Assembly (NCBI GenBank): GCA_027488515.1
Contig: JAIYBN010000001.1
Coordinates: 192,811-256,810 of the forward strand
Direction of reading: 5' to 3'
DNA length: 64,000 bases
Origin: Pseudomonadota bacterium
GTDB taxonomy: Bacteria; Bdellovibrionota; UBA1018; CAIMNF01
Shown: positions 20,000 through 59,317 of the stretch, one piece after another
How positions within the stretch are numbered: the first letter of the stretch is position 1
Layout of the letters: every line of letters begins with the position of its first letter
Program-made: the position numbers and the translations under genes
The notes under the pieces: generated by a model
What the model was told of the DNA's origin: nothing
The model's database searches: none
What the model saw: the letters and a program-made list of their open reading frames with translations, nothing else

Positions 20000-20599
20000 T
20001 CAGGCTTGTTTCGCAAGCCTAAAGCGCTGGACCCGGACCAGGAGGTCCTGGAGCATCTCGATGCGGGCCATCCATTCCCGTTTCCGGACAGCCGGATCCC
20101 CGGAAATCGCAGTTTCGGCAGGCTTGACTGTGTAACTCTTCAAAGGAATCGGATCTTTTTGCAGGACCAACAGTCCGTCCTCGTAGGCCTGGGATTCGAT
20201 CTCCCGCACCAGCCGGGCCACTTCGCCGTCCTGGGGCATGAAAAAGAGCAGCATCTTGTAGGCCGAGAGCGCGTCCGCCATCCGTCCCAGGATCAAGTAA
20301 CTTTCCGCGAGCAACTTCTGGGCGACCAGATTGTCCGGAGCATCGAGCACGACCGGTTCGAGCTCCTTCACGGTCTCGGCATACTGCCCCTTGTCGAACA
20401 GCGCCCGGGCCAGGGCCACCCGCCCTCCGATGAAGTGGGGGTGAATCCGGAGCCCGTCCCGACAGATCTCGATCGCCTCTTCAAGCAAGCCCGCCTTCCG
20501 GTAGGCCTCGGCCAAAGGAGCGAACACCCTGGACCTCGGATCTTCCTGGTACTTCCTCAGGTAGTGGTAAATCTGCGGAGTTCCACGGACCTGATTCAT
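20000..20599 (-). CDS. Cytoplasmic TPR-repeat protein encoded directly downstream of pilQ.
   Basis: TPR consensus residues (AEAYRKAGLLEEAIEICRDGLRIHPH...ALFDKGQYAETVKEL). No signal peptide. 4-bp overlap with the pilQ stop. Confidence 0.6.
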   Translation of the reverse strand: MNQVRGTPQIYHYLRKYQEDPRSRVFAPLAEAYRKAGLLEEAIEICRDGLRIHPHFIGGRVALARALFDKGQYAETVKELEPVVLDAPDNLVAQKLLAESYLILGRMADALSAYKMLLFFMPQDGEVARLVREIESQAYEDGLLVLQKDPIPLKSYTVKPAETAISGDPAVRKREWMARIEMLQDLLVRVQRFRLAKQA

Positions 20600-22356: not shown

Positions 22357-22856
22357 TGTTTGTCCTCGTCTTTCTTGGTGAGAGAGACCAACTCTCCCGC
22401 CAACCTCAATTCGTAGATGTCAGGGACGTTGCGCCCTTTTTCGTCCTGGTAATATTCGACGACCCGGACGGCATCGGTGGTGATCTGGGTGATCTTCCCG
22501 CCGCGGACTCCGATCCGGTCACCGACCTTCACAAAATAGGTTTTTCCACCGCCGCCGATCAACATGGCCCTGACCTTACGGGGACCCGAGATGATCCCCT
22601 GGAGCTTGAAATCCTTCAGTGCGAGCGTCTCCAGCTCCGACTTGGGGATCTCTTTTTTGATGATCGCACTGGTGGGAAGCTGGAACGGATCGCGCAGGGC
22701 CCGGATCAGATCCTCGTTCAAGAGGGAGTCCATGGCAGGTTCGGGCTCAGCCAAGGCCACGGGAGCGACTGGTGGCGCCGGTGGCGGCGGAGGAGCAGGA
22801 GCCGCGAACGTGATGACCGGAAGGAAAAGCAGTATTGAAAGAATCCAGGCTCTCAT
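22353..22856 (-). CDS. pilP: Type IV pilus assembly lipoprotein PilP.
   Basis: Signal peptide, Pro-rich linker and a PilP-like beta domain (GIISGPRKVRAMLIGGGGKTYFVKVGDRIG). Position between pilO and pilQ. Confidence 0.75.
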   Translation of the reverse strand: MRAWILSILLFLPVITFAAPAPPPPPAPPVAPVALAEPEPAMDSLLNEDLIRALRDPFQLPTSAIIKKEIPKSELETLALKDFKLQGIISGPRKVRAMLIGGGGKTYFVKVGDRIGVRGGKITQITTDAVRVVEYYQDEKGRNVPDIYELRLAGELVSLTKKDEDKQ

Positions 22857-23602
22857 GGTTTGCCCGGTCCTTTCGGACGGTCACCGGTGGCCGGCACGAC
22901 GGCTTTCCGTCCGGCTTTGTCATCCAACTTCGATTTCTCGTCCAGTTTCGGCTTTTCTTGCTCTTTCTTGGCCCCGGTGTCGGTCCCGACCATGTCTTTC
23001 GGAATCTCTGCGATCTGAAGCTTGTCTTCTTTGCTGAGCGTGTACTGGTAGGCACGAACCGAAAGATTCGCCGAGAGGGTGATCGCCTTCGCTGACAAAC
23101 TGGTCGAGGCGATCCGGAGGGTGACTCCCTCGATTCTCAGGATCCTCTGGAGCTGGGAAACCCGATGGACGAAGAGCAACAGGTTTTGAAAGGTCCCCCG
23201 CACCTCGAGCTTGAACTCCTGATCCAGGTAATATTCGCGCTGGTCTTTCTTACCCGGCTCGATGCGGTCGACCTTCAGGTCCGCCCGCTTGGCCTCGGTG
23301 TCGAGCAGTCGGAGCAGAACGGGCACGTCCGGAGCCTCGGACAGTGCGCCCTGATATTCGCCCAGCTTCACGATCTGGGCCCGAATCTCTTCGCGCTTCT
23401 GATCGAGCGATTTCATGAACTTGTTACCGTCGGCGAGCTTCTTCTTCAGACCTTCCAACTCCGAGTTCGCGCTGGCCATGGCCGCGCGGTGGAGTTCCAC
23501 CTCCCCCTCGGGGGAGTAGCTGAAGGTGTAATACTGGAAGCCGAGGTACCCCAGGAAGGAGAAGAGCATGAGGTAGAACGGTGTGGACTTCAAGCCCTCC
23601 AT
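22853..23602 (-). CDS. pilO: Type IV pilus assembly protein PilO.
   Basis: Single N-terminal TM, a coiled-coil and a PilO-like periplasmic domain. Conserved pilMNOPQ gene order. Confidence 0.75.
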   Translation of the reverse strand: MEGLKSTPFYLMLFSFLGYLGFQYYTFSYSPEGEVELHRAAMASANSELEGLKKKLADGNKFMKSLDQKREEIRAQIVKLGEYQGALSEAPDVPVLLRLLDTEAKRADLKVDRIEPGKKDQREYYLDQEFKLEVRGTFQNLLLFVHRVSQLQRILRIEGVTLRIASTSLSAKAITLSANLSVRAYQYTLSKEDKLQIAEIPKDMVGTDTGAKKEQEKPKLDEKSKLDDKAGRKAVVPATGDRPKGPGKP

Positions 23603-24231
23603 CAGTCTCTCCTCGCAGTCAGATCGAAGTTGATCCGTTTTTGAGTCGGATCACTCGACGAATTCCGGAGCGCGACTTCTTTGAAATAGATCGTGCGCCC
23701 CAGGCGCGACATGAAGTCACTCACCATGCTGTATTCGATCGCCCCACCCCGGATGGTGTAGTTCTTTTCGACCTGGCTGAATTCGACGATCCAAGCGTCT
23801 TTGGGCATGGCCTGCACCAGACTGATCAGCGACTTTGCCGTGAAATCGCGACCGCGGATCAGGTTTTCGATGGTGTCCATCTTGGCACGGATCACCATCG
23901 AATTTCGCTCGAGGTCCATTTTGATCGCCTCGAAACCTTTGATCTTCTGAAGTTGCTTGTTGATCTTGTCCTTGACCTCACCGACGGCGGCCAATTCCTT
24001 GGCGTGCTCGTCCCGGATCCCCTGAATGGTCTCGTCGTAAAAGTAGTTTGCTGAAAGAGCGAAAATCGCCGGTATGCCGATTTTGTAGAACAAGGGGGCC
24101 AGGGTCTTCCCGCTCCCCTGACCGACATTCCTCAGGGCATCGAGATTGATCCTCGACTTCAAGTCATCGACCTTGCCCCCGGCGCCGGCCGCGGCGACAG
24201 TACGCTTTTTGACCAAATTGACCTTGATCAT
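23602..24231 (-). CDS. pilN: Type IV pilus assembly protein PilN.
   Basis: Short cytoplasmic N-terminus (MIKVNLVKK), single TM and a periplasmic domain. Located between pilM and pilO. Confidence 0.75.
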   Translation of the reverse strand: MIKVNLVKKRTVAAAGAGGKVDDLKSRINLDALRNVGQGSGKTLAPLFYKIGIPAIFALSANYFYDETIQGIRDEHAKELAAVGEVKDKINKQLQKIKGFEAIKMDLERNSMVIRAKMDTIENLIRGRDFTAKSLISLVQAMPKDAWIVEFSQVEKNYTIRGGAIEYSMVSDFMSRLGRTIYFKEVALRNSSSDPTQKRINFDLTARRD

Positions 24232-25334
24232 GTCTTGTCCCTCGCGCGGATGGCCAGACCGATCGGGATCACAGCCTCAGGAGCGATACTGTCTAGGTAC
24301 TCTTGACTCATTTTTTTCGGATCCCCTTGGATCCGCTCGAAGGGGTTCACGATCTGAACCGGAACTCCCACATACTCCTGGACGATGGGAATCATCCCCA
24401 GCGCCCGGGATCCCCCACCCGAGAGGTAGACGGTCGAAACCGGCGGACCGAGGTTCGAGGCATTGTAGAAATCGATCGAACGCTTCAACTCGGTTCCGAG
24501 GACATGACACATCCTCGAAACGATCTCCGAAACCTCCTGGGGAAGTGTTTCGGAGATTTTCAAGGTCTCCGCATCGACGAAGGTCGGCAGCTTCAACTCA
24601 CGCTGGATCTCGTTGGTGACATTGATGCCGCCATAAGGTGCGTCCTTGGTGAACAGCGGAGAGCCGTCGGCACAAATGGTAACCTTGGTGCTCATGGCAC
24701 CGATGTCGGCGATCAAGACCGCCTCGTTGGAAGGGATCGTGTAGTTGGATTCGAAGCAGTTCTGGAGGGCGAACACCTCCACATCCATCACTTTCGTCTG
24801 GAGTCCGGCCTCCTCGATCACTCCGAGGTACTGGTCGATGTAATCGTTCTTCACCGCCACGACGACGACTTCGAATTCGTTCTTTTTCGTCTCGCGAATG
24901 GTCTGGTAGTCGATCACGACATCGTTGATGTCGAACGGAATGTATTGCTCGGCCTCCCAGTAGACCTGATCCTCGAGCTCTTTCTTGTTGTTCACGCTGA
25001 TGGTGAGGTTCTTGATGATCACGCCGCTCCCCACCAGGGAAGAGCACACCTCTTTGGCTTTGACTTTGGTCGCCGTGAAGGCTTCTTGGATGGCGAATGC
25101 GATATTCGCCGCGTTCACCACTTCCCGCTGGTCCGAGAGGACTTCCTCGACAGGGATGTTGGCGTAGGCCGTCATCATCCAGGAGTTCGATTTTTTGCGT
25201 AATTCGACCAGCTTGACGCTCGATGCCCCGATGCTCAATCCCACATAGGAACGGCCAAGTATGAAAGAGAGGTCAATGCCCCCCTTCAAACGCGCGAGTA
25301 GACTACTTCCTGCCCTTCCTTGAGCGGATGCCAT
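24228..25334 (-). CDS. pilM: Type IV pilus assembly ATPase-like protein PilM (actin fold).
   Basis: Actin/FtsA-like fold signatures (VGLSIGASSVKLVEL; DIGAMSTKVTI; VYLSGGGS). Confidence 0.85.
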   Translation of the reverse strand: MASAQGRAGSSLLARLKGGIDLSFILGRSYVGLSIGASSVKLVELRKKSNSWMMTAYANIPVEEVLSDQREVVNAANIAFAIQEAFTATKVKAKEVCSSLVGSGVIIKNLTISVNNKKELEDQVYWEAEQYIPFDINDVVIDYQTIRETKKNEFEVVVVAVKNDYIDQYLGVIEEAGLQTKVMDVEVFALQNCFESNYTIPSNEAVLIADIGAMSTKVTICADGSPLFTKDAPYGGINVTNEIQRELKLPTFVDAETLKISETLPQEVSEIVSRMCHVLGTELKRSIDFYNASNLGPPVSTVYLSGGGSRALGMIPIVQEYVGVPVQIVNPFERIQGDPKKMSQEYLDSIAPEAVIPIGLAIRARDKT

Positions 25335-25380
25335 GAATACCAGAGTATCGGGTTCGAGTAACAATTACAATTCATTGACA

Positions 25381-25953
25381 CTAGTTTATGGAAATTTTTG
25401 CCGACTCACCGTCGAGGATCACGTAAGACGCCCGGTCCAGTCGACCGACAGTCAAGTCATTGACAGGAACCACGACCACCACACTGCGGACCGCTTGACT
25501 CATGTCGAGTCCGAATACCGGGTCAAAGCAAACTTCATCCGTCGCCAATCCCAGAGAGTACTTTGCAGCATCCGCACGCGACAGGATGACCAACTCCTCG
25601 GGCCTGAGCGTCCAGGTCCCCGGCTCGAGTTCCCTCACCACCGGCCCACCTCCGCATCGCTCGAGTACCTCCACCCGGTATTGGCCACCACCGATGAACT
25701 TCAAGCGAACCGGCCTTTTTTCCTGGATGGAGAGGGTTTTCACCCGCTCGAGCTCGGTGGAGATCTCCCTCGCAGCCCGCAGGGACCTCCACTTGGGCAG
25801 ACGCTCTTTCACCACAGGTACGGCGCATAGTGAAAGAAACAGGATGAGCGCCGACCCCAGAATGAGGAATCGCTTCCGATTCTGTCGGATCCGCACCTGC
25901 TCATAGAGCTCAAAATCCCGCCACTGTACTTCTTCTTCTAAAGGCCGATCCAT
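25381..25953 (-). CDS. Hypothetical membrane-anchored protein between pilM and pilD.
   Basis: Start at an internal Met (MDRPLEEEVQWRDF...), one TM (FLILGSALILFLSLCAVPVV) and a soluble domain with no recognisable family. Confidence 0.4.
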   Translation of the reverse strand: MDRPLEEEVQWRDFELYEQVRIRQNRKRFLILGSALILFLSLCAVPVVKERLPKWRSLRAAREISTELERVKTLSIQEKRPVRLKFIGGGQYRVEVLERCGGGPVVRELEPGTWTLRPEELVILSRADAAKYSLGLATDEVCFDPVFGLDMSQAVRSVVVVVPVNDLTVGRLDRASYVILDGESAKISIN

Positions 25954-26733
25954 GCTGACACCCCGAAAAAGAGTTCTACCAGAGCCCCGAAGACCAGGAA
26001 AGGCCCATAAGGAATCTGGGTCCGAAGGACACCCTCTGAATCCCCCCCGGCAGCCCCCTGCCTCTTGGACCACGCCGCCATCGCCAGCCCCACCAGACTC
26101 CCTGTGATGGAGCTGATCAAAATCGCTGACCAGATGCCCCCGAAGCCGAGAAAAATCCCGATGGTTCCCATGAAGTTCACGTCACCTCCACCCAAACCGA
26201 CCCGTCCGGTGACCTTTTCGTAAAGCAGACCGAACAGAAAGAAAAATCCGAACCCCGCGACCGAGGCTGCCACCAGCTCCCAGGGGCCGTGCCTGAAATC
26301 GGAAAAGCAAGTCAGGAGCCCCACCCCCCAACCTCCGAAACTGAGCGTGTGCGGGATGATCCTGTGATCGAGGTCGATGAAAGTGACTGCGATACCGATC
26401 AGAATGAAAATCCAGACCCTGAACTGGTTGACCGCCTGGATCCAGTCACCCGGCAGTCCCAGATAGGAACCCCAGAACAAAAAAGCGGTCAAGAGCTCCA
26501 CCAGTGGATAACGGGGGGAGATCCTGATCCCGCAACCCGCGCACCGCCCCCGGAGCATCAGGTAACCGAGGACCGGGACATTGTGATACCAGCGGATCGC
26601 TTCCTTGCAGGACGGACAGCGACTCCCCGGATGAACGATCGACTCCTCGAGCGGCAACCGGTGAATCACCACGTTCAAAAAACTTCCCAACACCAGACCC
26701 AGAAGGACGACTCCGATCGATTCGATCATCATA
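25938..26733 (-). CDS. pilD: Prepilin peptidase PilD (A24 family leader peptidase / N-methyltransferase).
   Basis: Tetracysteine zinc motif CPSC...CAGC and polytopic membrane topology. Start placed at MMIESIGVVLLG (internal to the listed ORF). Confidence 0.85.
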
Positions 26734-27523
26734 AGTTCTTCCTGTAGAAAACCGCATTTCCGATGAGCATGAACAACAGGGCCCACGCCAGACCGTATCC
26801 CATCCGCTGGACCATCTCGAATCCGCCGAGCGCCACGTCGTAATAGACCCGGGTGTCCATCAACAGGACCTGCCCATTCGGTGTCAGTTGCATGAGAAGT
26901 GAGAAAACCGGAGATCCGTCGCCGGCCTGCTTTTTCAAGAAATCGAGCTGGTCGTGATTGTGACTCAGAAACAGGTAAGCCATGCACACCATCACCGAAA
27001 GCCCCTGTCGGAAAAACAGGGACACCAGCATTGCGATGGCGGAAACCATCAAGGACTCAATCCAGATCAACAGTGTGGCCTGAATCAAAGCCTCATTCAC
27101 CCCACCTCCGGTCACACTGAGTGCGACCCACAGCACTCCGGTCAGAAGCATCAGATTCACACCACAAAACCACGAGATTCCGATCCACTTTCCGAAAAAG
27201 TAGCTCACCCGCGAAACCGGCCTCGACAGTGGCAGGTAAGCCACCCGTTGCTCCACTTCGGACCTGAGCAATCTGGCACCGGCACCCCCTGCGACCAGGT
27301 ACACGGAAATGGCATTGATCATGATCCCCAAGTGAAGCATGACCCTGTCCTGGTGACCGTAGACCAGCAAGGCGGCGAGGTATCCGAAGAAAAGCAGAAG
27401 CAAGGACACGAAAAAAATATTGTACAGAATCCGCTCCCGGAGCAGATCTTGAAACGCCTGGAATGCGACGAACACCGTTTGTCTCGGGTACACCCCAATT
27501 CGATTCATGGCAGCGCCCTCCAC
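26729..27523 (-). CDS. ABC-2 type transporter permease (PilI-like position in a myxobacterial-type pil cluster).
   Basis: Six predicted TM helices and no ATPase motifs. Translationally coupled to the upstream ATPase and to downstream pilD. Confidence 0.65.
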   Translation of the reverse strand: MEGAAMNRIGVYPRQTVFVAFQAFQDLLRERILYNIFFVSLLLLFFGYLAALLVYGHQDRVMLHLGIMINAISVYLVAGGAGARLLRSEVEQRVAYLPLSRPVSRVSYFFGKWIGISWFCGVNLMLLTGVLWVALSVTGGGVNEALIQATLLIWIESLMVSAIAMLVSLFFRQGLSVMVCMAYLFLSHNHDQLDFLKKQAGDGSPVFSLLMQLTPNGQVLLMDTRVYYDVALGGFEMVQRMGYGLAWALLFMLIGNAVFYRKNL

Positions 27524-28179
27524 TCCGACACCGTTCCTCTGAACCGGATCTCTCCGTCCTCCAGAATCAGCACCTCGTCGGCCAACTGCTCGACATCCTC
27601 CATGACGTGGGATGAGAAGATGATGGTCTTCCCCGCCTCACTCCATTTCTGGATCTGGGCCTTCACCGCTTCACGGGATTCGGGATCGAGTCCGCTCATC
27701 GGCTCGTCCAGAACCTTGATCTCCGGATTGCCTAGGGCAGCCTGGGCTAACACCGCCTTTTGCAACATCCCCTTCGAGAAGGTACTCAACGAATCGTCGA
27801 GATGACCGCTCAAACCGACTTCACCTGCGATCTGTTCGAAGGTGGTCCGATCCCTGGGAACACCTGCCAGACGGGCATGGTAGGTCAGGAGGGAGCCGAA
27901 TTCGTGATCCAGATTCAAATACGGGCGCTCGACCACATACCCGACCGCTGCACGGGCCCGCCAATCCTCGTTCGATTTCCCCAGAATCCTGACTTCTCCG
28001 GCGGTCTGGTACTTCAAGCCGAGCAGAATATGGAAGAAAGTGGTCTTGCCGGCGCCATTGTGACCCAATACCGCAAAGACCTTTCCACGGGGAATGCTGA
28101 AGTCGAGACCTTTCAGGATGCGCTTTTTCCCGATGACGAACTCAAGTCCGACAACCTCGATAGCCACTGGTTCATTCAT
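27505..28179 (-). CDS. ABC transporter ATP-binding protein (PilH-like position).
   Basis: Walker A GHNGAGKTT, signature LSKGMLQKAVLAQAAL, Walker B ILILDEP. Confidence 0.85.
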   Translation of the reverse strand: MNEPVAIEVVGLEFVIGKKRILKGLDFSIPRGKVFAVLGHNGAGKTTFFHILLGLKYQTAGEVRILGKSNEDWRARAAVGYVVERPYLNLDHEFGSLLTYHARLAGVPRDRTTFEQIAGEVGLSGHLDDSLSTFSKGMLQKAVLAQAALGNPEIKVLDEPMSGLDPESREAVKAQIQKWSEAGKTIIFSSHVMEDVEQLADEVLILEDGEIRFRGTVSEWRALP

Positions 28180-28864
28180 AGTGCTTCAGCTTCTCCTCGT
28201 ATTTCTTCCTGACCGGACCGGCCTCGGTCGTCGAGATCATCCACTTGAGGACCTTCACCGCGAGTTTCCGATCCCCGTCCCCCTCCTGGAGCCACTTCTT
28301 CATGCTCTGGAGGTAGGCCGGAGAGCCCGGCGAATACGCGGCCTTCAGGTAGTCATTGCGGGCTTGAGCCCAATCATTCCGCATGAACGCGTTCACATAC
28401 GCACGATGCAGGTAAAGGCTGTAAGGATGGGTCCAGAACCGCTTCGGGGGACTGGCGCGCTCGTAAATCCGGATCCCTTTGTCAATGAACTCCAGTGCGG
28501 CGAAAGGGGCGTCAAACAGACACGAGAAATTGACCGCCGCCTGATCATAAATTTCGTAAAAGTAAGGATCCAACCCGGTCGACAAGCGGTAGAACCCCAC
28601 ACTTTCATTGAGCGCGTCCGCACTGAAATTCCCGGACCCGATCAACTGAAGAGTCCGGATCCAAAGGTAGTCGTGAGCCGCGGGCCAGAATCCTCCCGAG
28701 ATCAACCTGAAGAACTGAGGGGTCAGGTGATAATCCCCGGCTTTGAGCAGATGGGGGCGGTTAAAATCAACTTCTTTAATTGATAAATAAAGAGGCAAGC
28801 AAAAAACGAGGGCGACAAGCGCCTGACTGTGAAAAACACCTCGCCATTTCATAAACTTCTCCAT
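28172..28864 (-). CDS. Hypothetical protein (PilG-like position upstream of the ABC pair).
   Basis: ORF only. N-terminal hydrophobic segment. Overlaps the ATPase start. Confidence 0.4.
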   Translation of the reverse strand: MEKFMKWRGVFHSQALVALVFCLPLYLSIKEVDFNRPHLLKAGDYHLTPQFFRLISGGFWPAAHDYLWIRTLQLIGSGNFSADALNESVGFYRLSTGLDPYFYEIYDQAAVNFSCLFDAPFAALEFIDKGIRIYERASPPKRFWTHPYSLYLHRAYVNAFMRNDWAQARNDYLKAAYSPGSPAYLQSMKKWLQEGDGDRKLAVKVLKWMISTTEAGPVRKKYEEKLKHYE

Positions 28865-28923
28865 AGAATAATGGTATGGGTGGACGTAGGGAAGCCCAAA
28901 ATACCCTTTAAGGAGGGGTTCGT

Positions 28924-29607
28924 ATGGAACGTATGTTGGGAAAAAAACTGAGTCAAATGAGGAACGCCGAGGGTTTCACCTTGGTGGAACTCATGGTGGT
29001 CGTGGCAATCATCGGGATTCTGGCAACTCTCGCGGTCCCGCAGTACAAAAAGTTTCAGGCGAAGAGCCGGCAAAGTGAGGCCAGACTCTCTCTCGGTGGT
29101 GCTTACACCATCGAACAGAGCTTCGCTGCTGAAAACGCATCTTACACCACCTGCCTCGGGCAGGCCGGGTACAACCGCGACGGTGTGAGGTTCTACTACT
29201 CCGTCGGTTTCGCAGGTCCAGCCTTGAACCAGCAGACTTGCGGCCCGAACAATACCCTCGATTGCAACTTTACGGCGTGGCAGTTCGATCCAGCCACCCA
29301 GACCTATGCGGTTCAGGGTGATGCCAAGTGCGATGAGCAGGCCCAAAACATGGGGATCTTCATGGCGACTGCGGGTGAAAACGGGCAATTGGTTCCCAAA
29401 GATGCCGATACCGCTCGGGCCCGTCTGGACAAGGTAACGGTGGACGGGGGGAATGCCGTAACTGCCATTTCCCAGCAGACGTTCACGATCGGCGCCTCGG
29501 GAAGCATCCTGACTGCAGCCGGTACCGTGGCCTTGACGAACGCGTTCGACGGTTGGACCATCGACCAGAACAAGCAGTTGAAGAACAGCCAAAGCGGTTT
29601 GTTCTGA
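28924..29607 (+). CDS. pilA: Type IVa major pilin PilA.
   Basis: Strong RBS AAGGAGG 9 nt upstream. Class-III signal with G|FTLVELMVVVAIIGILA (E at +5). 227 aa with a Cys-containing C-terminal region. Confidence 0.9.
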   Translation: MERMLGKKLSQMRNAEGFTLVELMVVVAIIGILATLAVPQYKKFQAKSRQSEARLSLGGAYTIEQSFAAENASYTTCLGQAGYNRDGVRFYYSVGFAGPALNQQTCGPNNTLDCNFTAWQFDPATQTYAVQGDAKCDEQAQNMGIFMATAGENGQLVPKDADTARARLDKVTVDGGNAVTAISQQTFTIGASGSILTAAGTVALTNAFDGWTIDQNKQLKNSQSGLF

Positions 29608-29630
29608 TCCTGAGTATTCCGATTTCAGAA

Positions 29631-29666
29631 GGCCTCGGGAAGCGATTCCCGGGGCCTTTTTGTTTT
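29631..29666. terminator. Bidirectional rho-independent terminator between convergent pilA and the sigma54-activator gene.
   Basis: GGCCTCGGGAA-GCGA-TTCCCGGGGCC hairpin followed by TTTTTGTTTT on the plus strand. Confidence 0.65.
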
Positions 29667-30616
29667 CACTTGATCAACTCGAGGGCCCGTTCGGGATCTC
29701 CCTTTGCGAACACCAGGGCCTGCGCCCGGTAAAAGGCACGCACCTGCTCGATCACTTCGGCCATCTCGACGGGGCCCAGAGTGAAGTCGGCCTTCAGAAC
29801 CAGCTCACGCAATTTTCCAGCCTCTTTACGGGCGGAGAGCACCATCTCGGGAGGCAAGGTACCCACCTGGATTTTTGACCCCGACTCCAGGGTCGAGACC
29901 CGCTCCATGACATTCTCCAGCTCCCGGATGTTGCCGGGCCAACGGTGGGCCAGAATCACCTCAAGGGCTTCGGGTGTGAATCCCTCCAAGTGACGTTGGT
30001 GCTTTTCATTGAATCGTTTCAAGAACACCGATGCGAGCTCCTCGACATCCCCTGACCGGGTTCGGAGGGGTGGAGTTTCCAGGAGGATCACGTTGAGCCG
30101 GTAATAAAGGTCTTCCCGGAAGGTGCCTTTTTTCACTGCGTCTTCGAGGTTCCGGTTCGTAGCTGCGACAATGCGGACATCGATCTTGATATTCTCGTTT
30201 CCGCCGACCCGGCGGATGGTCCGGTCCTGGAGCGACCGGAGCAGTTTCACCTGCATGGTCAATGGCAACTCACCCACTTCATCGAGAAAGAGTGTGCCCC
30301 CGTCAGCCACCTGGAAGAGCCCTTCCTTGTCCGCAACGGCTCCGGTGAAGCTTCCCTTTTTATGACCGAACAACTCGCTCTCGATCAATGTCTCGGGGAT
30401 CGCCCCGCAATTCACCGCGACAAAAGGTCCGTCCTTCACCGCACTCAGCTCGTGAAGCGCACGCGCCACCAACTCTTTTCCGGTGCCACTCTCGCCGATG
30501 ATCAGGACATTGGTCTTCGAGGGGGCGACCCGCTCGATCATCTTCTTCAGTGCCGCCACTTGGGGAGACTTCCCCAACAAAGGTCTCTTGATCTGGTCGA
30601 TTGCCGCCATGGTCAC
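29666..30616 (-). CDS. Sigma54 activator domain protein (PilR-like position) lacking a receiver domain.
   Basis: AAA+ sigma54-interaction domain only (GESGTGKELVARALH, GSFTGA variant of GAFTGA, arginine-finger region). 316 aa. The N-terminus goes directly into the AAA+ domain. No clear Fis-type HTH at the C-terminus. Confidence 0.8.
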   Translation of the reverse strand: MTMAAIDQIKRPLLGKSPQVAALKKMIERVAPSKTNVLIIGESGTGKELVARALHELSAVKDGPFVAVNCGAIPETLIESELFGHKKGSFTGAVADKEGLFQVADGGTLFLDEVGELPLTMQVKLLRSLQDRTIRRVGGNENIKIDVRIVAATNRNLEDAVKKGTFREDLYYRLNVILLETPPLRTRSGDVEELASVFLKRFNEKHQRHLEGFTPEALEVILAHRWPGNIRELENVMERVSTLESGSKIQVGTLPPEMVLSARKEAGKLRELVLKADFTLGPVEMAEVIEQVRAFYRAQALVFAKGDPERALELIK

Positions 30617-31851
30617 TCCCCGCCGCCGGCGCTGCCGGCCATTTGGAATATGGGAAGGTACATGGAAATCATGAGACCACCCACAATTCCACCCATCACC
30701 ACGAGCATCACCGGCTCAATGAGCTTCAGCATGCCTTGGATCGCATTTTCCACTTCTTCTTCATAGAACTCGGCGATCTTCTCGAGCATCTTGTCGAGGT
30801 TACCGGTGTTCTCACCCACCGAGCTCATCTGGATACACATCCTCGGAAAGAGCTTGGGGAACTTGGACATGGCTGCCGTGAAGCTGGCCCCGAGTTCGAC
30901 GTCTTTCTTCATCTCGGTGATCGCGTCTTCGAACGCGACATGGGTCGCCGCCGCTTTGCAAATTTCGAGTCCGTCCACAATCGGCACACCGGATGCGAGC
31001 AGGGTCGCCAGTGTCCGGGTGAAACGGGCGACACCGCTCTTCACGATCAAGGGACCCGTGAGGGGCAAGCCGAGAGCGATGTTCTGCATCACGATCCGTC
31101 CTTCGTTGGTACGAAGGTAAGACCTCGCCATGTAGAACCCGACCCCGAGCATCCCGAGAATGGTCACGAGGTTGTCGATCACTGCGTGGGACAGCCACAA
31201 GACCACCTTGGTCGGGGCGGGCATTTCACCACCGCTGCTCAAAATCATCGACTCGAACTTGGGAATCACCACGGTGAGCATCAAGGTGATCACCCCGAGC
31301 GCGATCACCGTCACAGAAATCGGATAAGTCATCGAGCTCTTCAAGAGCTTCTTCAGTCGATAGGAGTTCTCGAGATACTTGCCGATCCGCTTCAGCATGA
31401 CATCAAGTGTTCCCGATGACTCCCCCGCCCGCACCAGGGCCACGAACACCCTTTCGAAGGTGTTCGGGTACATCGCAAAGCACTCCCAAAGGAAACTACC
31501 CCCGTTGATCCGTTCTTTGCAGGCACCGAGAATCCGGCGGAGTGTCGGATCCGTCTCCTGTTCGTGAAACAGTTCAATGGCCTGGATCAGGGGAACCCCC
31601 GAGGTGATCATGGTCTGAAGCTGTCGGATGAAGTTCATCAAGCGCTCGACATTGACCGTGTCCGAACCGCCCGCGAGGCCCTTGATGGCCGTACCGACGT
31701 TGATCTGGGTCAGGGAGGCCTTGGCGATCTTGTTGGGACGCAGTCCCTGGCCACGCAAGGCCATGCGAACTTCGCCCTCGTTGCTGGCCTCCATCTTTCC
31801 TTCGACTTTTTTCCCCGCTTTGTCCGAGGCGACGTAGACAAACTCAGGCAT
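30613..31851 (-). CDS. pilC: Type IV pilus inner-membrane platform protein PilC (GspF family).
   Basis: Two GspF-type repeats with three TM helices and the typical length. Located between pilT and the regulator. Confidence 0.88.
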   Translation of the reverse strand: MPEFVYVASDKAGKKVEGKMEASNEGEVRMALRGQGLRPNKIAKASLTQINVGTAIKGLAGGSDTVNVERLMNFIRQLQTMITSGVPLIQAIELFHEQETDPTLRRILGACKERINGGSFLWECFAMYPNTFERVFVALVRAGESSGTLDVMLKRIGKYLENSYRLKKLLKSSMTYPISVTVIALGVITLMLTVVIPKFESMILSSGGEMPAPTKVVLWLSHAVIDNLVTILGMLGVGFYMARSYLRTNEGRIVMQNIALGLPLTGPLIVKSGVARFTRTLATLLASGVPIVDGLEICKAAATHVAFEDAITEMKKDVELGASFTAAMSKFPKLFPRMCIQMSSVGENTGNLDKMLEKIAEFYEEEVENAIQGMLKLIEPVMLVVMGGIVGGLMISMYLPIFQMAGSAGGGE

Positions 31852-31863: not shown

Positions 31864-32925
31864 TCAGACCATCTTCCCGAGTTCGTCGGGCATGAGACTG
31901 TACGCCATGGCGTCGGCCTTGGTCAGGTTTCCTTTGCGGACCAGCTCTGCGAGCGATTGATTCATCGTTTGCATCCCGGTGCCGGCCTGTCCGGCTTGCA
32001 TGGCGCCGTAAACCTGGTGCATCTTGTCCTCACGGATCAGGTTCCGGATGGCCGTGTTCGGAGCCAGGAGTTCGAATGCGGCGGAACGCCCGGATTTCCC
32101 GGAATTCGGAACCAATTGTTGGGTCAAGACTCCGATCAATGTTGCAGCCAGCAACTGGCGGATCTGCGGTTGCTGGTGCGGAGGAAACACGTTCACCACC
32201 CGTGCGATCGTCTGAACGGCGCTGTTCGTGTGCATCGTTCCGAACACCATGTGACCGGTCTCAGCGGCGGTCAAGGCCATCTCGATCGTTTCGAGATCCC
32301 GCAACTCCCCCACCAGAATGAAGTCCGGGTCCTGCCGGAGTGCGTGCTTGAGGGCGTCGTGGAAGGTGTGTGAGTCCGCACCGATCTCGCGCTGGTTGAC
32401 AATGCAGTTCTTGTGCTGATGGACGAATTCGATCGGGTCTTCGAACGTGAGAATGTGCCCGTTGTCTTCGCGGTTCAGCAGGTCGATGATGGCCGCGAGG
32501 GAGGTGGATTTACCCGAGCCGGTGGGTCCGGTGACCAGGAACAGTCCGTTCGGCTGTTTGACGATCTTTCTGATCGCATCGGGGAGACTCAATTTGTCGA
32601 ACTCGGGAATGTTCACCGGGATCTTCCGGAAGACAGCGCCCATCGATCCACGCTGGAAAAACAGGTTTCCCCGGAATCGGGCCACATCCTTCACACCGAA
32701 CGAGAAATCGAGTTCGTTCGCGGTTTCGAACGTCTTCTTCTGCTGTTCAGTGAGGATTTCGTAGACCAGCTCCTTTATCGAGTCCGGCGTGAGGGGATCC
32801 GTCTTGGCCTTCATGAGTTTGCCATGGATCCTGAACTGCGGTGGCGTGTTGCAGGTGATGTGCAAGTCGGACGCGTCCTGATCCACCATCGCCCGGAGCA
32901 ATGCCGTGAGTGTCAGCTTTCCCAT
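31864..32925 (-). CDS. pilT: Twitching-motility retraction ATPase PilT.
   Basis: About 350 aa secretion ATPase. Walker A GPTGSGKST, Asp box, His box and the AIRNLIRE motif characteristic of PilT. Confidence 0.92.
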   Translation of the reverse strand: MGKLTLTALLRAMVDQDASDLHITCNTPPQFRIHGKLMKAKTDPLTPDSIKELVYEILTEQQKKTFETANELDFSFGVKDVARFRGNLFFQRGSMGAVFRKIPVNIPEFDKLSLPDAIRKIVKQPNGLFLVTGPTGSGKSTSLAAIIDLLNREDNGHILTFEDPIEFVHQHKNCIVNQREIGADSHTFHDALKHALRQDPDFILVGELRDLETIEMALTAAETGHMVFGTMHTNSAVQTIARVVNVFPPHQQPQIRQLLAATLIGVLTQQLVPNSGKSGRSAAFELLAPNTAIRNLIREDKMHQVYGAMQAGQAGTGMQTMNQSLAELVRKGNLTKADAMAYSLMPDELGKMV

Positions 32926-32949
32926 TTCAACGTCCCCTTCATGAATGCC

Positions 32950-34677
32950 TCACTGTTCCGCGGTCATCGAGACCGCTTCATCGACCGAGGTCCTGCCCTC
33001 GACCGCTTTCTTGAGTGCCGAAACCCTCAGCGTTTGCAGTCCGTATTGCTCGACGGCGGTCCGCTTGATCTCGATCGCTGTCCTGCCGGCCAGGGTCATC
33101 TCCTTGAGCTCGGAGAAATATTCGAGAACTTCATAGATGGCCACCCGTCCCTTGTACCCGGTGTTGTTGCACTCTTTGCAACCCTTCGGGCCGTAGAAAT
33201 TGGCGTTCGCCGCGAATTTGTTGATCCCCAGGGACTCCATTTTGTCGGCCGGAACCTTGACCGGTTGCTTGCAGTGCTGACAAAGGGTCCGGAGCAGTCG
33301 CTGGGCCACAATGGTGTTCACGGATGCGGTCACCAGGAAGGGCTCGATGCCCATGTTCACCATCCGGGTGATGGTCGAAACGGTGTCGTTCGTGTGAAGG
33401 GTGGATAAAACCAAGTGACCGGTCAGAGCCGCCTGAACCGCAACTTCACCCGTTTCGAAGTCCCGGATCTCCCCCACCAGAACGGTATCCGGATCCTGGC
33501 GGAGCAGGGCTCTCAAAACCGCGGCGAAGGTCAATCCGACATCCTTGTTCACTTGAACCTGGTTGATGCCCTCGAGGTTGTATTCCACAGGGTCTTCCAC
33601 GGTCGAAAGATTGTCAGAAACCTGGTTCAACTCCATGAGGGCCGAATAAAGGGTGGTGGTTTTCCCGCTACCGGTCGGACCCGTGACGAGCACCATTCCG
33701 TTCGGTTGGGCGATCCCCTTGCGGAAGATCTCCAATTGGCGGTCCTCGAATCCGAGCGTCCTGAGATCGAGTTGCAGGTTGCCCTTGGAGAGAATACGCA
33801 AAACCACCTTCTCACCGAAAAGGGTCGGGAGGGTGTTCACCCGGAAGTCGACTTCCTTGTTCCCGAGCTTGATCTTGATCCGTCCGTCCTGAGGCACACG
33901 GGATTCCGCGATGTCCATCCGGCCCATGATCTTGAAGCGCGCGACCACCGCACGTTTCATCTCCATCGGAATGTGTGTGACATCGATGAGCGCTCCGTCC
34001 ACCCGGATCCGGACACGGAAATCCCGCTCATAGGGTTCGACATGGATGTCCGAAGCCCCACGGCGGATGGCCTCGGTGAGTACGCTGTTCACCACAGAAA
34101 TGACCGGAGCATCATCCCCGGTGGCATTGTTCACATCGTGAACCTGGAATTGCTCGATCTGCTGGATCTGGACTTGTTCTTCCTTGCCACCCTTCGGGCC
34201 TTGGGCGTCCTTCTTGAATTGTTCGAGTGCCCGCCCGAGGTTCTGCGTTCCGGAATAATACTTCAGAAAAGCGGCGTCGAAAGCGGTGAACGTGGTCAAC
34301 ACCGCCTCGACATTCATTTTGGTCGCGAAACGGATGTCATCGAGAAATGCGATCTGTGTCGGATCAGGAACTGCCACAACGAGGATCCCCCGACTCATTT
34401 GAATCGGAATCGCTTGTGCCTTACGGGAGAGGTCCGCACTGATGGTGGCGACCACCTCGGGCTTCACCTCGAACTTGGCAAGATTGATGCTCTGGAGGGA
34501 GAACTTCTGGTTCAGGAACAGGAGCAGCTTCTGTTCCGAGAGAACTTTCTTCTCGATGAACTGACGGATGGCATCACCGTTGCTCTTGAAGATGGCCTCG
34601 GCATCCTGGTACTGGGATTGTGTGAGGAGCTTGTCCTTGTAAAGGAGCTCGACGAGTTTCCTGGACATCCCCTCCAT
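32950..34677 (-). CDS. pilB: Type IV pilus extension ATPase PilB (GspE family).
   Basis: N-terminal GspE_N domain, Walker A GPTGSGKTT, and the tetracysteine motif CQHC...CKEC. Confidence 0.92.
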   Translation of the reverse strand: MEGMSRKLVELLYKDKLLTQSQYQDAEAIFKSNGDAIRQFIEKKVLSEQKLLLFLNQKFSLQSINLAKFEVKPEVVATISADLSRKAQAIPIQMSRGILVVAVPDPTQIAFLDDIRFATKMNVEAVLTTFTAFDAAFLKYYSGTQNLGRALEQFKKDAQGPKGGKEEQVQIQQIEQFQVHDVNNATGDDAPVISVVNSVLTEAIRRGASDIHVEPYERDFRVRIRVDGALIDVTHIPMEMKRAVVARFKIMGRMDIAESRVPQDGRIKIKLGNKEVDFRVNTLPTLFGEKVVLRILSKGNLQLDLRTLGFEDRQLEIFRKGIAQPNGMVLVTGPTGSGKTTTLYSALMELNQVSDNLSTVEDPVEYNLEGINQVQVNKDVGLTFAAVLRALLRQDPDTVLVGEIRDFETGEVAVQAALTGHLVLSTLHTNDTVSTITRMVNMGIEPFLVTASVNTIVAQRLLRTLCQHCKQPVKVPADKMESLGINKFAANANFYGPKGCKECNNTGYKGRVAIYEVLEYFSELKEMTLAGRTAIEIKRTAVEQYGLQTLRVSALKKAVEGRTSVDEAVSMTAEQ

Positions 34678-34711: not shown

Positions 34712-35647
34712 TTAAGAATTTCGTGAACTTAACAGATGGCCCGCCAATTCCGTGTCGGCCCGGATCTGGTGCTTCAGTTCGTCAAGCGAGGAGAACTTCT
34801 TTTCATCCCGGATCCGTTCATGAAAGGAAACCTCGAGAATCTCACCGTAGAGTTCCAGGTCCTCGAGGAGGAGATGGGTCTCCATGCGGAGCTCGGACGA
34901 GTCAAATGTGGGCCGGGTCCCGAGATTGGTGACCGCAGGGTAAGTCTTCCCCTGCCAGAAAACTGTCGTTGCATAGACTCCGGACCGCAACGGGAACTTC
35001 GTGTCACACTTCATGTTCGCCGTCGGGAAACCGATGGTCCGGCCACGTTTGTCACCATGAACCACTTCCGCTTTATAGAAAAACGGACGCCCCAGCAACT
35101 CGCAAGCCGTGCTGACCCGCCCCTCCGAAAGGGCGGCACGGATCCTCGAGCTCGAAACCGGGAGACCGTCCACTTCGACCGGAGGCAGCGCCCGTAAAGT
35201 CACTCCTGCCGCGTCGCAAAACTGTTTCAAAACCGGAATTGTCCCTTCGCGGTTACGACCGAATGTGAAGTTCTCACCCACGACGATCACTCTCGCATGA
35301 GCCCTTCCGATCAGAATCCGGTCGAAAAACTCCCGGGCCGAAAGCCCTGCAAAAGTCGAATTGAACGGTTCCTCGATGCAATAGTCCACACCCAGGCCCT
35401 GCAAGCGGATCCGCTTTTCGTCATAGGTCATGAGGAGCCTCAAGTCCGACTCGGGCTTCAGCTCAAGCGTGGGATGGGGCTTGAAAGTGAACGCAACCAC
35501 CGGAAACCCGAGCGATCGGGAATCTTCCATGGCACGTCCGAGAATGGCCTGATGCCCCAGATGAACCCCGTCAAAATTCCCGAGCGCCACCACGGTTTGC
35601 GGCGGAAAATCGGCGTCCAGAAATTGCGAACCGAAGTAGGTTTTCAT
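34712..35647 (-). CDS. ribF: Bifunctional riboflavin kinase / FMN adenylyltransferase.
   Basis: ALGNFDGVHLGHQAIL (FAD synthetase HxGH) and a C-terminal riboflavin kinase domain. Confidence 0.9.
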   Translation of the reverse strand: MKTYFGSQFLDADFPPQTVVALGNFDGVHLGHQAILGRAMEDSRSLGFPVVAFTFKPHPTLELKPESDLRLLMTYDEKRIRLQGLGVDYCIEEPFNSTFAGLSAREFFDRILIGRAHARVIVVGENFTFGRNREGTIPVLKQFCDAAGVTLRALPPVEVDGLPVSSSRIRAALSEGRVSTACELLGRPFFYKAEVVHGDKRGRTIGFPTANMKCDTKFPLRSGVYATTVFWQGKTYPAVTNLGTRPTFDSSELRMETHLLLEDLELYGEILEVSFHERIRDEKKFSSLDELKHQIRADTELAGHLLSSRNS

Positions 35648-35804: not shown

Positions 35805-35871
35805 TCTTTCCTCGTAAAAACCCGTCCGGGTCAGACTGGAGTTTTTGCGCCGGAATGACGATCCGAAGGGC

Positions 35872-36576
35872 ATGAGATGGTTCCTCATTCCCCTTCTTTA
35901 CACACTCGCCACTCCGGCCTTCGCCCGCAAAATCGACCTCGACGGCCTTTGCGTGGGACTCCGGTCCGGATTCGCCCTGAGCCCGGAAGCGAAGCGCCTG
36001 CTCGGCGACAAGTCCCTCGATCGGGAACTCGATACCTCCCTGAAGGATGCTGACCGCGTGCGAGATGCCGCCTGCATCATCGGAGAAACCAAACGTTCGG
36101 TACACTTGGGAGCGTTGCTTCAGGTGCGTAACGAGCATCTGGTGCCGGAAGTGTTCCACGCCATCACCCGCGTCGCCTCTCCCAAGAACGAGGAACAGAT
36201 CCGGAATTCGCTGAAGTCCTGGATCCAATCCCCGAACCGTGAGGATCACATCCTGAGGACCCTGGGAGCGTTGCAAGTCCTGGGTACACTCCATTGGAAA
36301 CCGGGCCTCAAAGACATGGAAGGGTTGCTCGAGTCGAGCATTCCCGAAGTGAAAATGGGGAGTCATGATTTTCTGTTTCAGCGCTTCGACCAACTGAGCC
36401 CTCAAGAGCGACAGGACCTCATGAGATCCGCGCTGAAAAGGGATCCGCTCCAGGTCCGCATCAGTGCACTCCGCACCTACCGGGCACTCAAGGACGCGGA
36501 CAAAAAGCTCCTTCAAATTGACCTGAAGGACTGCAAGAAAGATCCGGAACCCGAAGTCAGGGAGGAATGCCCATGA
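35872..36576 (+). CDS. Secreted HEAT/ARM-like repeat protein of unknown function.
   Basis: Signal peptide MRWFLIPLLYTLATPAFA and helical repeats with recurring D-P-x-V-R-x-x-A-L patterns. No family recognised. Confidence 0.45.
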   Translation: MRWFLIPLLYTLATPAFARKIDLDGLCVGLRSGFALSPEAKRLLGDKSLDRELDTSLKDADRVRDAACIIGETKRSVHLGALLQVRNEHLVPEVFHAITRVASPKNEEQIRNSLKSWIQSPNREDHILRTLGALQVLGTLHWKPGLKDMEGLLESSIPEVKMGSHDFLFQRFDQLSPQERQDLMRSALKRDPLQVRISALRTYRALKDADKKLLQIDLKDCKKDPEPEVREECP

Positions 36577-37526
36577 ATGCGGGATTGATTCTATTCGGAG
36601 CCTGGCTGATCCTTCAACTCAGCCCGTCTCATGCACTCGCGGAACCGTCCTCCGCAAGCGAGGCGACGCAAACCCTCGAACAAGTCGCGAAAATCAACCA
36701 AAAGCCTGCATGTGATCCCTGGAGCTCGATGTCCAGGCTGAAAAAATGTCAGGAAAAGATGAGGCGTTTGTACCAAGACGGTGTGGCCAACATCCACCTG
36801 TTCATGGGGTATGGAGATTCCGGAGGGAGTCCACCGGTTGCCACCGATGCGGTCGAACGGGCTTACCTGGTTCAAAAGCTTTATGCCACCTGCGGAGTCG
36901 AACCTTGTGGATTCCGTGCCGATCCGAAAAACGCAAATCACGTCAGCAAATCACTGCCCGGTGGCAAAAAAATCGTGGTGAAACTTTACACCAGCGCCCT
37001 TTCCGACCGGGACGATCTCAACCGGAAAAATCCCAAACAGGCTGAACACACCAAGTGGATGAACGAGAAGTTCAAAACAGCCCTGGGATCATCGGAAGCA
37101 GTCTTTTATGTGGGCCACTCCCGTGATGGTGGTGGTCCCGACTTCGGACCGCCGCGCCTTCTCAAAGGCGGGCACACCGACTACAGCTGGTACCGGAAGA
37201 ACCGCCCCGGACTGAAGATGATCCAGGAGAACATGAAGAAGGGCCGTCCCGAAATTTACGGATCATTTTCCTGTGACTCCCTCAAACACTTCGCCGCACC
37301 CATTCGGAAAGTGAATCCGGATGTGATCTACTTCGGAACCACCCGTCTGGCCTACTACAATTACACCAGCAAGGTGGTGAACCAAGTGAGCGTTCCCGAC
37401 CGGATCGGATACAGCGAGTCCATCGACTCCGCATTGATCGCCATCGGCGGCGTCGCGGATCAAAGATGCGAGTTCAACACGACCTTCAAAAAAATGAAAC
37501 AGCCCACTGAAGCCGATTACGAGTGA
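36573..37526 (+). CDS. Secreted hypothetical protein.
   Basis: Signal peptide MNAGLILFGAWLILQLSPSHALA. Cys-containing mature protein with no recognisable motif. Overlaps the previous gene by 4 bp. Confidence 0.4.
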   Translation: MNAGLILFGAWLILQLSPSHALAEPSSASEATQTLEQVAKINQKPACDPWSSMSRLKKCQEKMRRLYQDGVANIHLFMGYGDSGGSPPVATDAVERAYLVQKLYATCGVEPCGFRADPKNANHVSKSLPGGKKIVVKLYTSALSDRDDLNRKNPKQAEHTKWMNEKFKTALGSSEAVFYVGHSRDGGGPDFGPPRLLKGGHTDYSWYRKNRPGLKMIQENMKKGRPEIYGSFSCDSLKHFAAPIRKVNPDVIYFGTTRLAYYNYTSKVVNQVSVPDRIGYSESIDSALIAIGGVADQRCEFNTTFKKMKQPTEADYE

Positions 37527-39409: not shown

Positions 39410-39572
39410 CGTCTCCGTGTGATCCTGATAGAGCAAAGACGATGCCAGCCCTGAATGACCCTTGGATTCGAATAAAGAGGTTTTCAGGCCTGAACAGGCC
39501 GAAAAGAGGTGTCCAAATCCGGTACAGGCGAGAGGCCCGAGTACATCAACCCGCTCACTCAACCGATTCGAT

Positions 39573-55445: not shown

Positions 55446-55498
55446 ATTTGCCTGACTGACGTGAACCACACGATGCCGACACAAGGGGGGGCATCTCT

Positions 55499-59316: not shown

Positions 59317-59317
59317 T

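Follow-up and report, generated by a model that had tools for sequence, protein, structure and literature searches.

A truncated, PilR-like sigma-54 activator core at the end of a pilus motor operon in uncultured Bdellovibrionota, probably no longer acting on the pilin gene

Introduction

What is a sigma-54 activator for once it lacks a domain that receives signals, a domain that reads DNA and, apparently, a promoter at its customary target? The question is raised by a type IV pilus cluster contained in 64,000 nucleotides of contig JAIYBN010000001.1 (assembly GCA_027488515.1), from a bacterium placed by GTDB in the Bdellovibrionota; this whole stretch is hereafter called the window. In Myxococcus, Pseudomonas and Geobacter the pilin gene, pilA, is activated by PilR via sigma-54. 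In the window the place of pilS and pilR, directly after pilC, is taken by a single short gene – its product is referred to below as the regulator – which a first-pass annotation had read as a pared-down bacterial enhancer-binding protein (bEBP) exerting atypical control over the pilin gene. Our analysis supports that description of the protein in most respects, and points away from the pilin gene as its target. We propose that the regulator may be a PilR-derived, autonomous and dose-controlled sigma-54 activator that lacks regulatory and DNA-binding domains alike, a reading to which we assign a probability of roughly 0.45.

Results

The regulator, its recognizable parts and the gene immediately upstream are as follows.

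29666..30616, minus strand: putatively PilR-derived sigma-54 activator, consisting of AAA+ core, lid and two-helix tail (Pfam, 77 homologous clusters, AlphaFold 2 model)
30473..30496, minus strand: Walker A motif GESGTGKE, residues 41-48 (translation; invariant or nearly so in the alignment)
30338..30355, minus strand: GSFTGA loop, the sigma-54 contact motif, residues 88-93 (translation; invariant in 32 aligned homologues)
29669..29776, minus strand: vestigial Fis-type helix-turn-helix (HTH), residues 281-316, helices 1 and 2 without a recognition helix (alignment, hhalign, AlphaFold 2)
30613..31851, minus strand: pilC, 412 amino acids (aa; two T2SSF matches reaching residue 400)

Read from its GTG, the regulator comprises 316 aa and is the longest open reading frame (ORF) in its own frame. 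That GTG shares four nucleotides (GTGA) with the stop codon of pilC: the two genes do adjoin, as first annotated, but by a 4-nt overlap and not with pilC ending 4 bp upstream. Two codons into the gene, at 30610, stands an ATG with GGAG 5 nt upstream of it; the database protein P0001, of 314 aa, is 100% identical to the regulator read from this codon, and we consider the ATG (giving 314 aa) a more likely start than the GTG. A miscalled start hiding an upstream receiver domain (REC) was considered and ruled out, because the ORF is maximal and what lies upstream of it is the full PilC coding sequence, the stop of which overlaps the GTG; the first-pass annotation was right to see no REC in frame.

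Judged by its sequence, the regulator is a bEBP core. Pfam places Sigma54_activat (PF00158) at residues 14-179 (E 2.8e-74, 166 of 168 profile positions) and AAA_lid_14 at residues 185-265 (E 6.8e-24), with only 13 residues preceding the AAA+ domain. Response_reg and HTH_8 gave no match even at E <= 1, which bears out the claims that this is a sigma-54 AAA+ core without a receiver and that no HTH_8 lies at its C-terminus. The NCBIfam models for NifA, AtoC, NtrC, PspF and others matched through the central domain only, far under their own cut-offs. In addition to the GSFTGA loop – a variant also found in the full-length PilR of L017, a Pseudobdellovibrio locus – the Walker B residues DE (112-113), the sensor I residues TN (153-154), R167 and R231 are invariant across the 32 homologues. 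The AlphaFold 2 model (mean predicted local distance difference test score 85.5) has bEBP AAA+ cores as its top matches in the PDB, namely ZraR, FleQ, NtrC1, LuxO and PspF, and superposes on the cores of NtrC1, FleQ and ZraR with a root-mean-square deviation of 1.5-2.3 A. A check by eye for the residues with which FleQ binds cyclic di-GMP turned up nothing beyond the generic arginine that follows Walker A.

The C-terminal tail proved more informative than its lack of an HTH_8 match would suggest. When it was compared with the tails of HTH_8-bearing relatives that lack REC (REC-less relatives), and with full-length PilRs, residues 281-316 (GPVEMAEVIEQVRAFYRAQALVFAKGDPERALELIK) aligned with helices 1 and 2 of HTH_8 (GPI.L..VL..VE..YL..AL...GG....AA.LLG), and the stop codon was found to fall directly after the 'AAxLLG' helix, at the point where the recognition helix (..SRSTLYRKLKK..) would begin. 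Set by hhalign against the DNA-binding domains (DBDs) of full-length regulators, the tails matched with a probability of 78% and an E-value of 1.8e-5 over the first 36 of 62 DBD columns only; the structural model places helices at 285-303 and 308-315, and in no frame does the sequence past the stop encode anything like a third helix. Four tail residues (F278, G281, V292 and A300) are conserved in 100% of 78 sequences, and four more (F295, E299, A311 and L314) in 94-97%. The roughly 50 C-terminal residues are thus recognizably a truncated Fis-type HTH and not unrelated sequence. The earlier view that the C-terminus carries no Fis-type HTH stands insofar as no usable HTH is present, and falls insofar as the first two Fis helices are still to be seen. 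The conserved two-helix stub probably keeps a role in protein-protein contact, be it dimerization or docking.

The truncation is not peculiar to the window. A protein search recovered 77 clusters of 313-326 aa with 68-100% identity to the regulator, all without REC and without HTH_8. The recognition helix is missing from 77 of 77, each ending 0-10 residues past the 'AAxLL' helix. All members come from uncultured metagenome-assembled genomes (MAGs), the few that are named being Bdellovibrionales MAGs. More distant relatives, all of them likewise REC-less, comprise proteins of 332-359 aa with a full HTH_8 and proteins of 315-324 aa whose third helix is degenerate; in a neighbor-joining tree of AAA+ cores the REC-less group as a whole was monophyletic in 56 of 60 bootstraps. 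Because the truncation is common to all 77 clusters, the regulator represents a conserved family and not a pseudogene. A recent stop inside an HTH was considered and rejected on the same ground – identical end, conserved tail – and because the 58 nt downstream of the stop hold a terminator, after which comes pilA.

A conserved family need not be a family of activators. The protein could be a decaying relic, a dominant-negative poison of bEBP rings, or an ATPase with some pilus-related job, and the loss of two of three ancestral domains, the disappearance of the former target promoter (below) and the strict linkage with pilus motor genes are all in keeping with such a fate. We nevertheless think it improbable, for the AAA+ core is the best-conserved part of the protein (mean commonest-residue frequency 0.91 over 78 sequences), the GSFTGA loop, Walker motifs and arginine fingers that neither a relic nor a poison would need are invariant, and the 77 clusters contain zero frameshifts and zero stops.

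The genes around the regulator form a Myxococcus-type pilus cluster.

34712..35647, minus strand: ribF, first gene of the ribF-pilB-pilT-pilC-regulator string (L001 orthologue with FAD_syn and Flavokinase)
32950..34677, minus strand: pilB (L001 orthologues of pilB and pilT with T2SSE and MshEN)
31864..32925, minus strand: pilT (same evidence as pilB)
29627..29660, no strand assigned: 15-bp hairpin between regulator and pilA, likely a shared terminator (terminator scan)
28924..29607, plus strand: pilA, a type IV pilin gene convergent with the regulator (N_methyl E 9.7e-9; GFTLVELMVV signal)
20000..28864, minus strand: remainder of the cluster – pilG-like gene, ABC ATPase and permease (pilH/I-like), pilD, a hypothetical gene, pilMNOPQ and a TPR protein (ORFs; Pfam matches of the syntenic L001 and L003; TPR hit)

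Exact matching of the regulator and of the identical P0001 against the gene-position index gave no entry, and genome context was taken from homologues at 57-87% identity. A metagenome scan with the tail-only alignment was specific, whereas a contig profile scan on universal bEBP motifs (SGTGKELVA, NCGAIPE) yielded, for the most part, NtrC-family loci of many phyla that are unrelated; we used these solely to root comparisons as outgroups and to supply positive controls for pilin promoters. Fifteen REC-less loci share one gene order: ribF-pilB-pilT-pilC-regulator, pilA, the pilG-like gene, ABC ATPase and permease, pilD, the hypothetical gene, pilMNOPQ and the TPR gene. In all 15 the regulator is the last gene of its string and overlaps or abuts the pilC stop, in the position of PilR; across 31864..34677 the intergenic gaps of the string are 12-34 nt. 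The arrangement is that of the Myxococcus-type cluster of PMC6060248, for which linkage of ribF to pilB has also been described. The regulator does lie between pilC and pilA, as first annotated, but pilA is on the opposite strand and thus convergent, not tandem; 58 nt containing the 15-bp hairpin separate the regulator stop from the pilA 3' end. Convergence is usual among the REC-less loci, extra genes sometimes being inserted before pilA. No kinase or receiver gene occurs within about 10 kb of the regulator in the window or in the syntenic loci, in agreement with the earlier statement that the cluster has no PilS and no adjacent kinase.

Several observations on the cluster deserve record in their own right. 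Pfam finds nothing, even at E 0.1, in several conserved products of the cluster: the 230-aa pilG-like protein (28172..28864, minus strand), whose gene is divergent from pilA; the protein of about 190-230 aa encoded between pilD and pilM (25381..26073, minus strand); and proteins of 243 and 319 aa encoded between lysA and ribF (35845..37526, plus strand). The first two are kept in every related locus and could be uncharacterized pilus components. In L004, a relative with HTH_8, a stretch of about 55 nt from the 3' end of the regulator (GGAGTATTCGTTACCG..GGTAAGCTCGGGATGGAT) is repeated some 720 nt downstream (11075..11795), and the repeats flank an insert that begins with a 20-nt inverted repeat (AATAATGCCTATAATAAACG / CGTTTATAGGCATTATT), an arrangement resembling a mobile-element insertion that duplicated the gene end. 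Genes for AAA_14/DUF4143 ATPases lie at the regulator-pilA junction both in the contig carrying P0042 and in L087; the junction may be an insertion hot spot.

Where did the regulator come from? Two loci, L017 and L006 (the latter a Bacteriovoracaceae MAG), carry pilB-pilT-pilC-pilS-pilR in the same slot, with a pilS product of 509-535 aa and a PilR of 468-495 aa that has the full REC-AAA-HTH architecture; the same operon is present in Bdellovibrio bacteriovorus HD100 (PMC4237445). The PilRs of L017 and L006 are the best full-length matches to the regulator, with AAA+ cores 51-57% identical. They are no closer to it than is the other bEBP of the window (56%), and they were sister to the REC-less clade in only 13 of 60 bootstraps of the neighbor-joining tree. 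With tree support weak and identity no higher than to the other bEBP, we call the regulator PilR-derived mainly by synteny. If that descent is accepted, the ancestor of an uncultured Bdellovibrionales clade would have lost pilS and the PilR receiver domain, and the Fis-type HTH would later have shed its recognition helix in a sub-clade that includes the window; what remained would be a sigma-54-remodelling AAA+ ATPase with a conserved two-helix stub. Derivation is not identity: the regulator fails four defining features of PilR – receiver, HTH, adjacent PilS and a sigma-54 promoter at pilA – and for that reason is not to be filed as PilR. JGI does so by orthology group, and annotation pipelines give the family the name 'two-component response regulator PilR' or 'Fis family transcriptional regulator', neither of which is correct in substance.

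At pilA no sigma-54 promoter was found, and the promoter candidate that we can offer for this gene is of another type.

28841..28869, plus strand: candidate sigma-70-type promoter of pilA, TCGCCA-17-TAGAAT (promoter scan)

For all pilin-like genes in the recovered loci we searched within 350 nt for GG-N10-GC within two mismatches of TGGCAC-N5-TTGCW. None of the 15 REC-less loci (the window and 14 others), HTH_8-bearing ones included, has such a site at pilA. The same scan found one at 8-9 of 12 pilins beside full-length bEBPs, and in L006, whose pilS-pilR is canonical, TGGCACGTAGTGTGCA lies 41 nt before the pilA ATG. Since REC-less loci that retain HTH_8 are also without the site, its loss tracks the loss of PilS and REC and not the later truncation of the HTH. 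A -10-like TAnAnT upstream of pilA is, by comparison, kept in 11 HTH-less loci while its surroundings diverge. We also considered a cryptic sigma-54 site, TGGACGTAGGGAAGC (28881..28895), the sole GG-N10-GC in the 59-nt leader, and rejected it: it has five mismatches and is deleted in L003.

These data bear directly on the proposal, made in the first-pass annotation, of an atypical sigma-54 control of the pilin, under which the regulator would drive a sigma-54 pilin promoter without phosphorylation and without binding an enhancer. Such direct activation has the conserved pilC-pilA position in its favor, together with the precedent of PilR in other genera and the sigma-54 promoter at pilA of the related L006. 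It founders, in our view, on the promoter: no -24/-12 element in any REC-less locus, by a scan that is positive at most pilins beside full-length regulators; a sigma-70-type -10 that has been kept; and a lone leader candidate that does not survive comparison. Direct control of pilA by the regulator is therefore unlikely, and the specific scheme just described we hold to be very improbable indeed. Because pilA no longer has a sigma-54 promoter, the regulator probably controls something else.

Two further observations concern pilin promoters elsewhere. Upstream of pilA in L087 (about 10540..10570, plus strand), a locus that is REC-less and HTH_8-bearing, a perfect palindrome, TGACACGGTGTCA, overlaps an extended -10-like sequence, TGTCATAAT; a repressor, or else the HTH-bearing regulator, could use this palindrome as its operator. 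In L006 two copies of a sigma-54-like site, TGGCACGAAACTAGCT and TGGCATGAATCTAGCT, lie 309 nt apart in the space that separates the pilG-like gene from convergent pilA (10214..10572, plus strand), and GGGCACAAAGTTTTCA stands 34 nt after each copy; these may be repeated small sigma-54-driven units.

If not pilA, then what? Two predicted sigma-54 promoters in the window stand before lipoprotein or lipoprotein-like genes.

39432..39447, minus strand: predicted sigma-54 promoter TGGCATCGTCTTTGCT, standing about 25 nt before the gene of a lipoprotein, after which comes lysA (consensus scan and conservation)
55430..55445, plus strand: perfect sigma-54 consensus TGGCACGTGCCTTGCT, 53 nt upstream of a gene for a 254-aa lipoprotein-like product, 55499..56263 (0 mismatches)

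The site at 39432 is identical in L001 although its flanks diverge, and L097 keeps the -24 and -12 blocks around a different spacer; retention of a site whose flanks and spacer differ is the signature of a functional promoter. As for the site at 55430, about 0.06 sites with no mismatch are expected by chance in 128 kb (both strands). In L003 and L096 a perfect sigma-54 site precedes the gene of a secreted 446-aa protein near the pil cluster. By this sequence signature, sigma-54 promoters are in use in the regulator's lineage. One further match was set aside as probably due to chance: TGGCATCACCGTTGCT (34569..34584, plus strand, one mismatch), antisense in the 5' part of pilB and present also in L001, coincides with conserved coding sequence on the other strand (SNGDAI of PilB) and points at no gene.

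Around these sites we record the following. The lipoprotein encoded downstream of the 39432 site has 158-167 aa and a lipobox, LSGIGC. A block at about 39490..39520 (CTGTACCGGATTTGGACACCTC, with a TGT-N11-ACA dyad) differs very little between the window and L001; it could serve as an enhancer. All of lysA, ribF, pilB, pilT, pilC, the lipoprotein gene and the truncated regulator run in one direction in L097, which makes sigma-54 read-through with positive feedback conceivable in that locus. The window does not allow for it, as two genes of the opposite strand come in between. The region 55430..60313 (plus strand) encodes the 254-aa product (no Pfam match), a DedA/VTT protein, a CHASE2-adenylate/guanylate cyclase (56956..59316) and a cyclic-nucleotide-binding protein (59318..60313), and may constitute a sigma-54-linked module for cyclic-nucleotide signalling.

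The regulator is not the only bEBP in the window.

3800..5839, plus strand: CHASE2-HisKA-HATPase_c kinase (Pfam)
5832..7259, plus strand: full REC-AAA+-HTH_8 regulator of NtrC type (Pfam)

These two genes are translationally overlapped, lie 22 kb from the truncated regulator and are embedded among genes for PBP1, an SBP_bac_5 protein, SurA, BamA and TamB. In L087 and L088, two basal REC-less relatives, a HisKA/HATPase kinase and a REC-AAA-HTH_8 regulator are encoded divergently beside ribF-pilB. The closest matches to the window pair are the orthologues in L087, L088, L057 and L081, with regulators 53% identical over their full length; the DBD of 5832..7259 matches only those of L057, L081 and L087 (the L087 sequence includes that part of the gene), the next-best regulators being 41-48% identical. 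In L057 the orthologues are accompanied by PBP1, SurA and BamA, and the window shows the same setting. In Myxococcus clusters a second pilSR pair occupies the ribF-pilB position, and pilus control in M. xanthus involves two PilSR pairs (PMC6060248). The pair at 3800..7259 is thus a candidate PilS2/PilR2-type system and a possible partner of the truncated protein. This tempers the earlier suggestion that the regulator's activity does not depend on phosphorylation: it has no receiver and no adjacent kinase, but with a kinase and an NtrC-type regulator in the window, and their orthologues beside the pil cluster of two relatives, phosphorylation may still enter through a partner.

An explanation built on this pair would make the regulator a co-activator like FleT, its AAA+ subunits mixing into rings with a full-length bEBP that supplies both enhancer targeting and phosphorylation control; the best candidate is 5832..7259 with its kinase at 3800..5839, and helices 1 and 2 may help in docking. 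FleT reportedly acts in a FleQ/FleT hetero-oligomer. A complete second bEBP and its kinase are at hand, their orthologues hold a PilS2/PilR2-type position in L087 and L088, and the two-helix stub is strongly conserved though it is unable to read DNA. Use of two PilSR pairs by M. xanthus would fit as well, and FleT has been called the one bEBP known to be without either the regulatory (R) or the DNA-binding (D) domain (PMC7175178, a 2020 review; likewise PMC3162934). Set against this, the pair lies more than 10 kb from the pil cluster in the window, L001, L003, L090, L091, L096 and L097; the pil cluster yielded no conserved enhancer or sigma-54 promoter; and the link to 5832..7259 is one of gene association only. 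We regard the co-activator as the chief rival of our own reading, possible if rather doubtful.

Discussion

The reading that we prefer, an autonomous activator controlled by its dose, runs as follows. Full-length relatives have a long helical linker between REC and AAA+ domain, of a kind typical of regulators whose receiver represses assembly; loss of this negatively acting receiver and linker should therefore leave the ring constitutively active, so that an active hexamer would exist whenever the protein is made. Without enhancer binding, the regulator would have to reach the sigma-54 holoenzyme from solution or via a DNA-binding partner, and we envisage the former: it would engage closed complexes from solution, in the manner of FlgR, CtcC and HTH-deleted PspF. 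Action from solution would make concentration the determinant of activity, and concentration would be tied to expression of the pilus motor operon (pilBTC) in which the gene is carried. The targets would be sigma-54 promoters outside the pilin gene, such as those of the envelope lipoprotein genes at 39432 and 55430; pilA, having switched to a sigma-70-type promoter, would be unaffected.

A number of points weigh against this account. Ancestry from PilR rests mainly on synteny, the sister relationship being recovered in so few bootstraps. The genome has at least one other bEBP (5832..7259), whose promoters a DNA-independent activator would be expected to cross-activate; this argues for some form of targeting or restraint. 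The least well explained feature is the strict conservation of the stub, which suggests an interaction with a partner beyond what action from solution requires; FlgR and CtcC, which we take to be without any DBD, differ in this respect. Finally, neither rpoN nor an RpoN box was found in the 64-kb window or in any recovered locus. That the window's genome contains rpoN is something we only infer; cultured relatives do encode it (PMC3464611; PMC3526173).

Restraint of the core could be exerted in trans. On this explanation, modelled on PspF and HrpS, the AAA+ core is intrinsically active and is held back by an anti-activator (compare PspA, HrpV and FleN) that binds core or stub and perhaps signals what state the pilus machine is in. 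Such control is known for the REC-less bEBPs of group 4 (PMC7175178), the sister clade has precisely the PspF architecture of AAA+ plus HTH_8, and the tail and the conserved peptide at the N-terminus could offer surfaces for binding. No PspA-, HrpV- or FleN/MinD-like gene is kept beside the regulator in the 15 loci, however, the conserved neighbors being pilus structural genes and two proteins without Pfam matches. Control of this sort is compatible with an autonomous, dose-controlled activator and does not exclude it; as an explanation in itself we find it unlikely.

How does the regulator compare with known systems? Activators without a D domain (FlgR, CtcC), without an R domain (PspF, HrpRS) and without both (FleT) are documented (PMC7175178; PMC3162934). 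PilR of Bdellovibrio, Pseudobdellovibrio, Bacteriovoracaceae and Myxococcus occupies the same slot after pilB-pilT-pilC, and the signature GHKKGSFTGA is common to the regulator and L017; the regulator differs in that the receiver, PilS and the recognition helix are all missing, as is a sigma-54 promoter at pilA. FleT of Rhodobacter (Cereibacter) sphaeroides is the nearest in architecture, with R and D domains both absent as here, a likeness that beyond the shared AAA+ core is drawn from the published description. FleT, too, is encoded inside an operon for a surface appendage. Its setting is nonetheless the flagellar hierarchy, in which it works with FleQ, whereas the window protein belongs to a type IV pilus cluster, is PilR-derived by synteny and retains a conserved 36-residue, two-helix vestige of its D domain. 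FlgR (Helicobacter) and CtcC (Chlamydia), of group 5, have no DBD and hence no enhancer binding (PMC7175178), but keep a phosphorylatable receiver and a cognate kinase, neither of which the window protein possesses; their organisms are not known to have more than a single bEBP, whereas the genome of the window has at least two. PspF and HrpR/HrpS, of group 4, lack an N-terminal regulatory domain, their control being exerted in trans (PMC7175178). Their architecture is that of the sister clade of 332-359 aa; they keep a working HTH and a dedicated anti-activator gene, whereas the window protein is without a recognition helix and no such gene is conserved near it.

The family is known only from uncultured organisms, and the mechanism is proposed from sequence. 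Within that limit its existence is a warning for annotation pipelines that label such proteins PilR or Fis family regulator. More broadly, it adds a whole conserved family to an architecture known from FleT alone, and does so from a different ancestry (PilR) and in a different context (the type IV pili of Bdellovibrio-like bacteria). It also supplies an evolutionary series, leading from PilS-PilR through a REC-less protein with an HTH, and then one with a degenerate HTH, to the truncated form, accompanied by a switch from sigma-54 to sigma-70 at the former target. Tentatively, and with less assurance than we attach to the activator itself, we suggest that this is a second, independent lineage of sigma-54 activators without regulatory or DNA-binding domain: born of PilR and not of a flagellar regulator, it may have been kept after pilA went over to sigma-70, whether to activate independently of DNA or to dock, as a subunit, onto a PilR2-type regulator. 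With its dose tied to the motor operon, construction of the pilus machine would gate a sigma-54 regulon of envelope proteins in predatory Bdellovibrionota. The family would in any case constitute a natural experiment on how much of a bEBP is needed, on how specificity is achieved without DNA binding, and on how a regulator is repurposed once its target has been lost.

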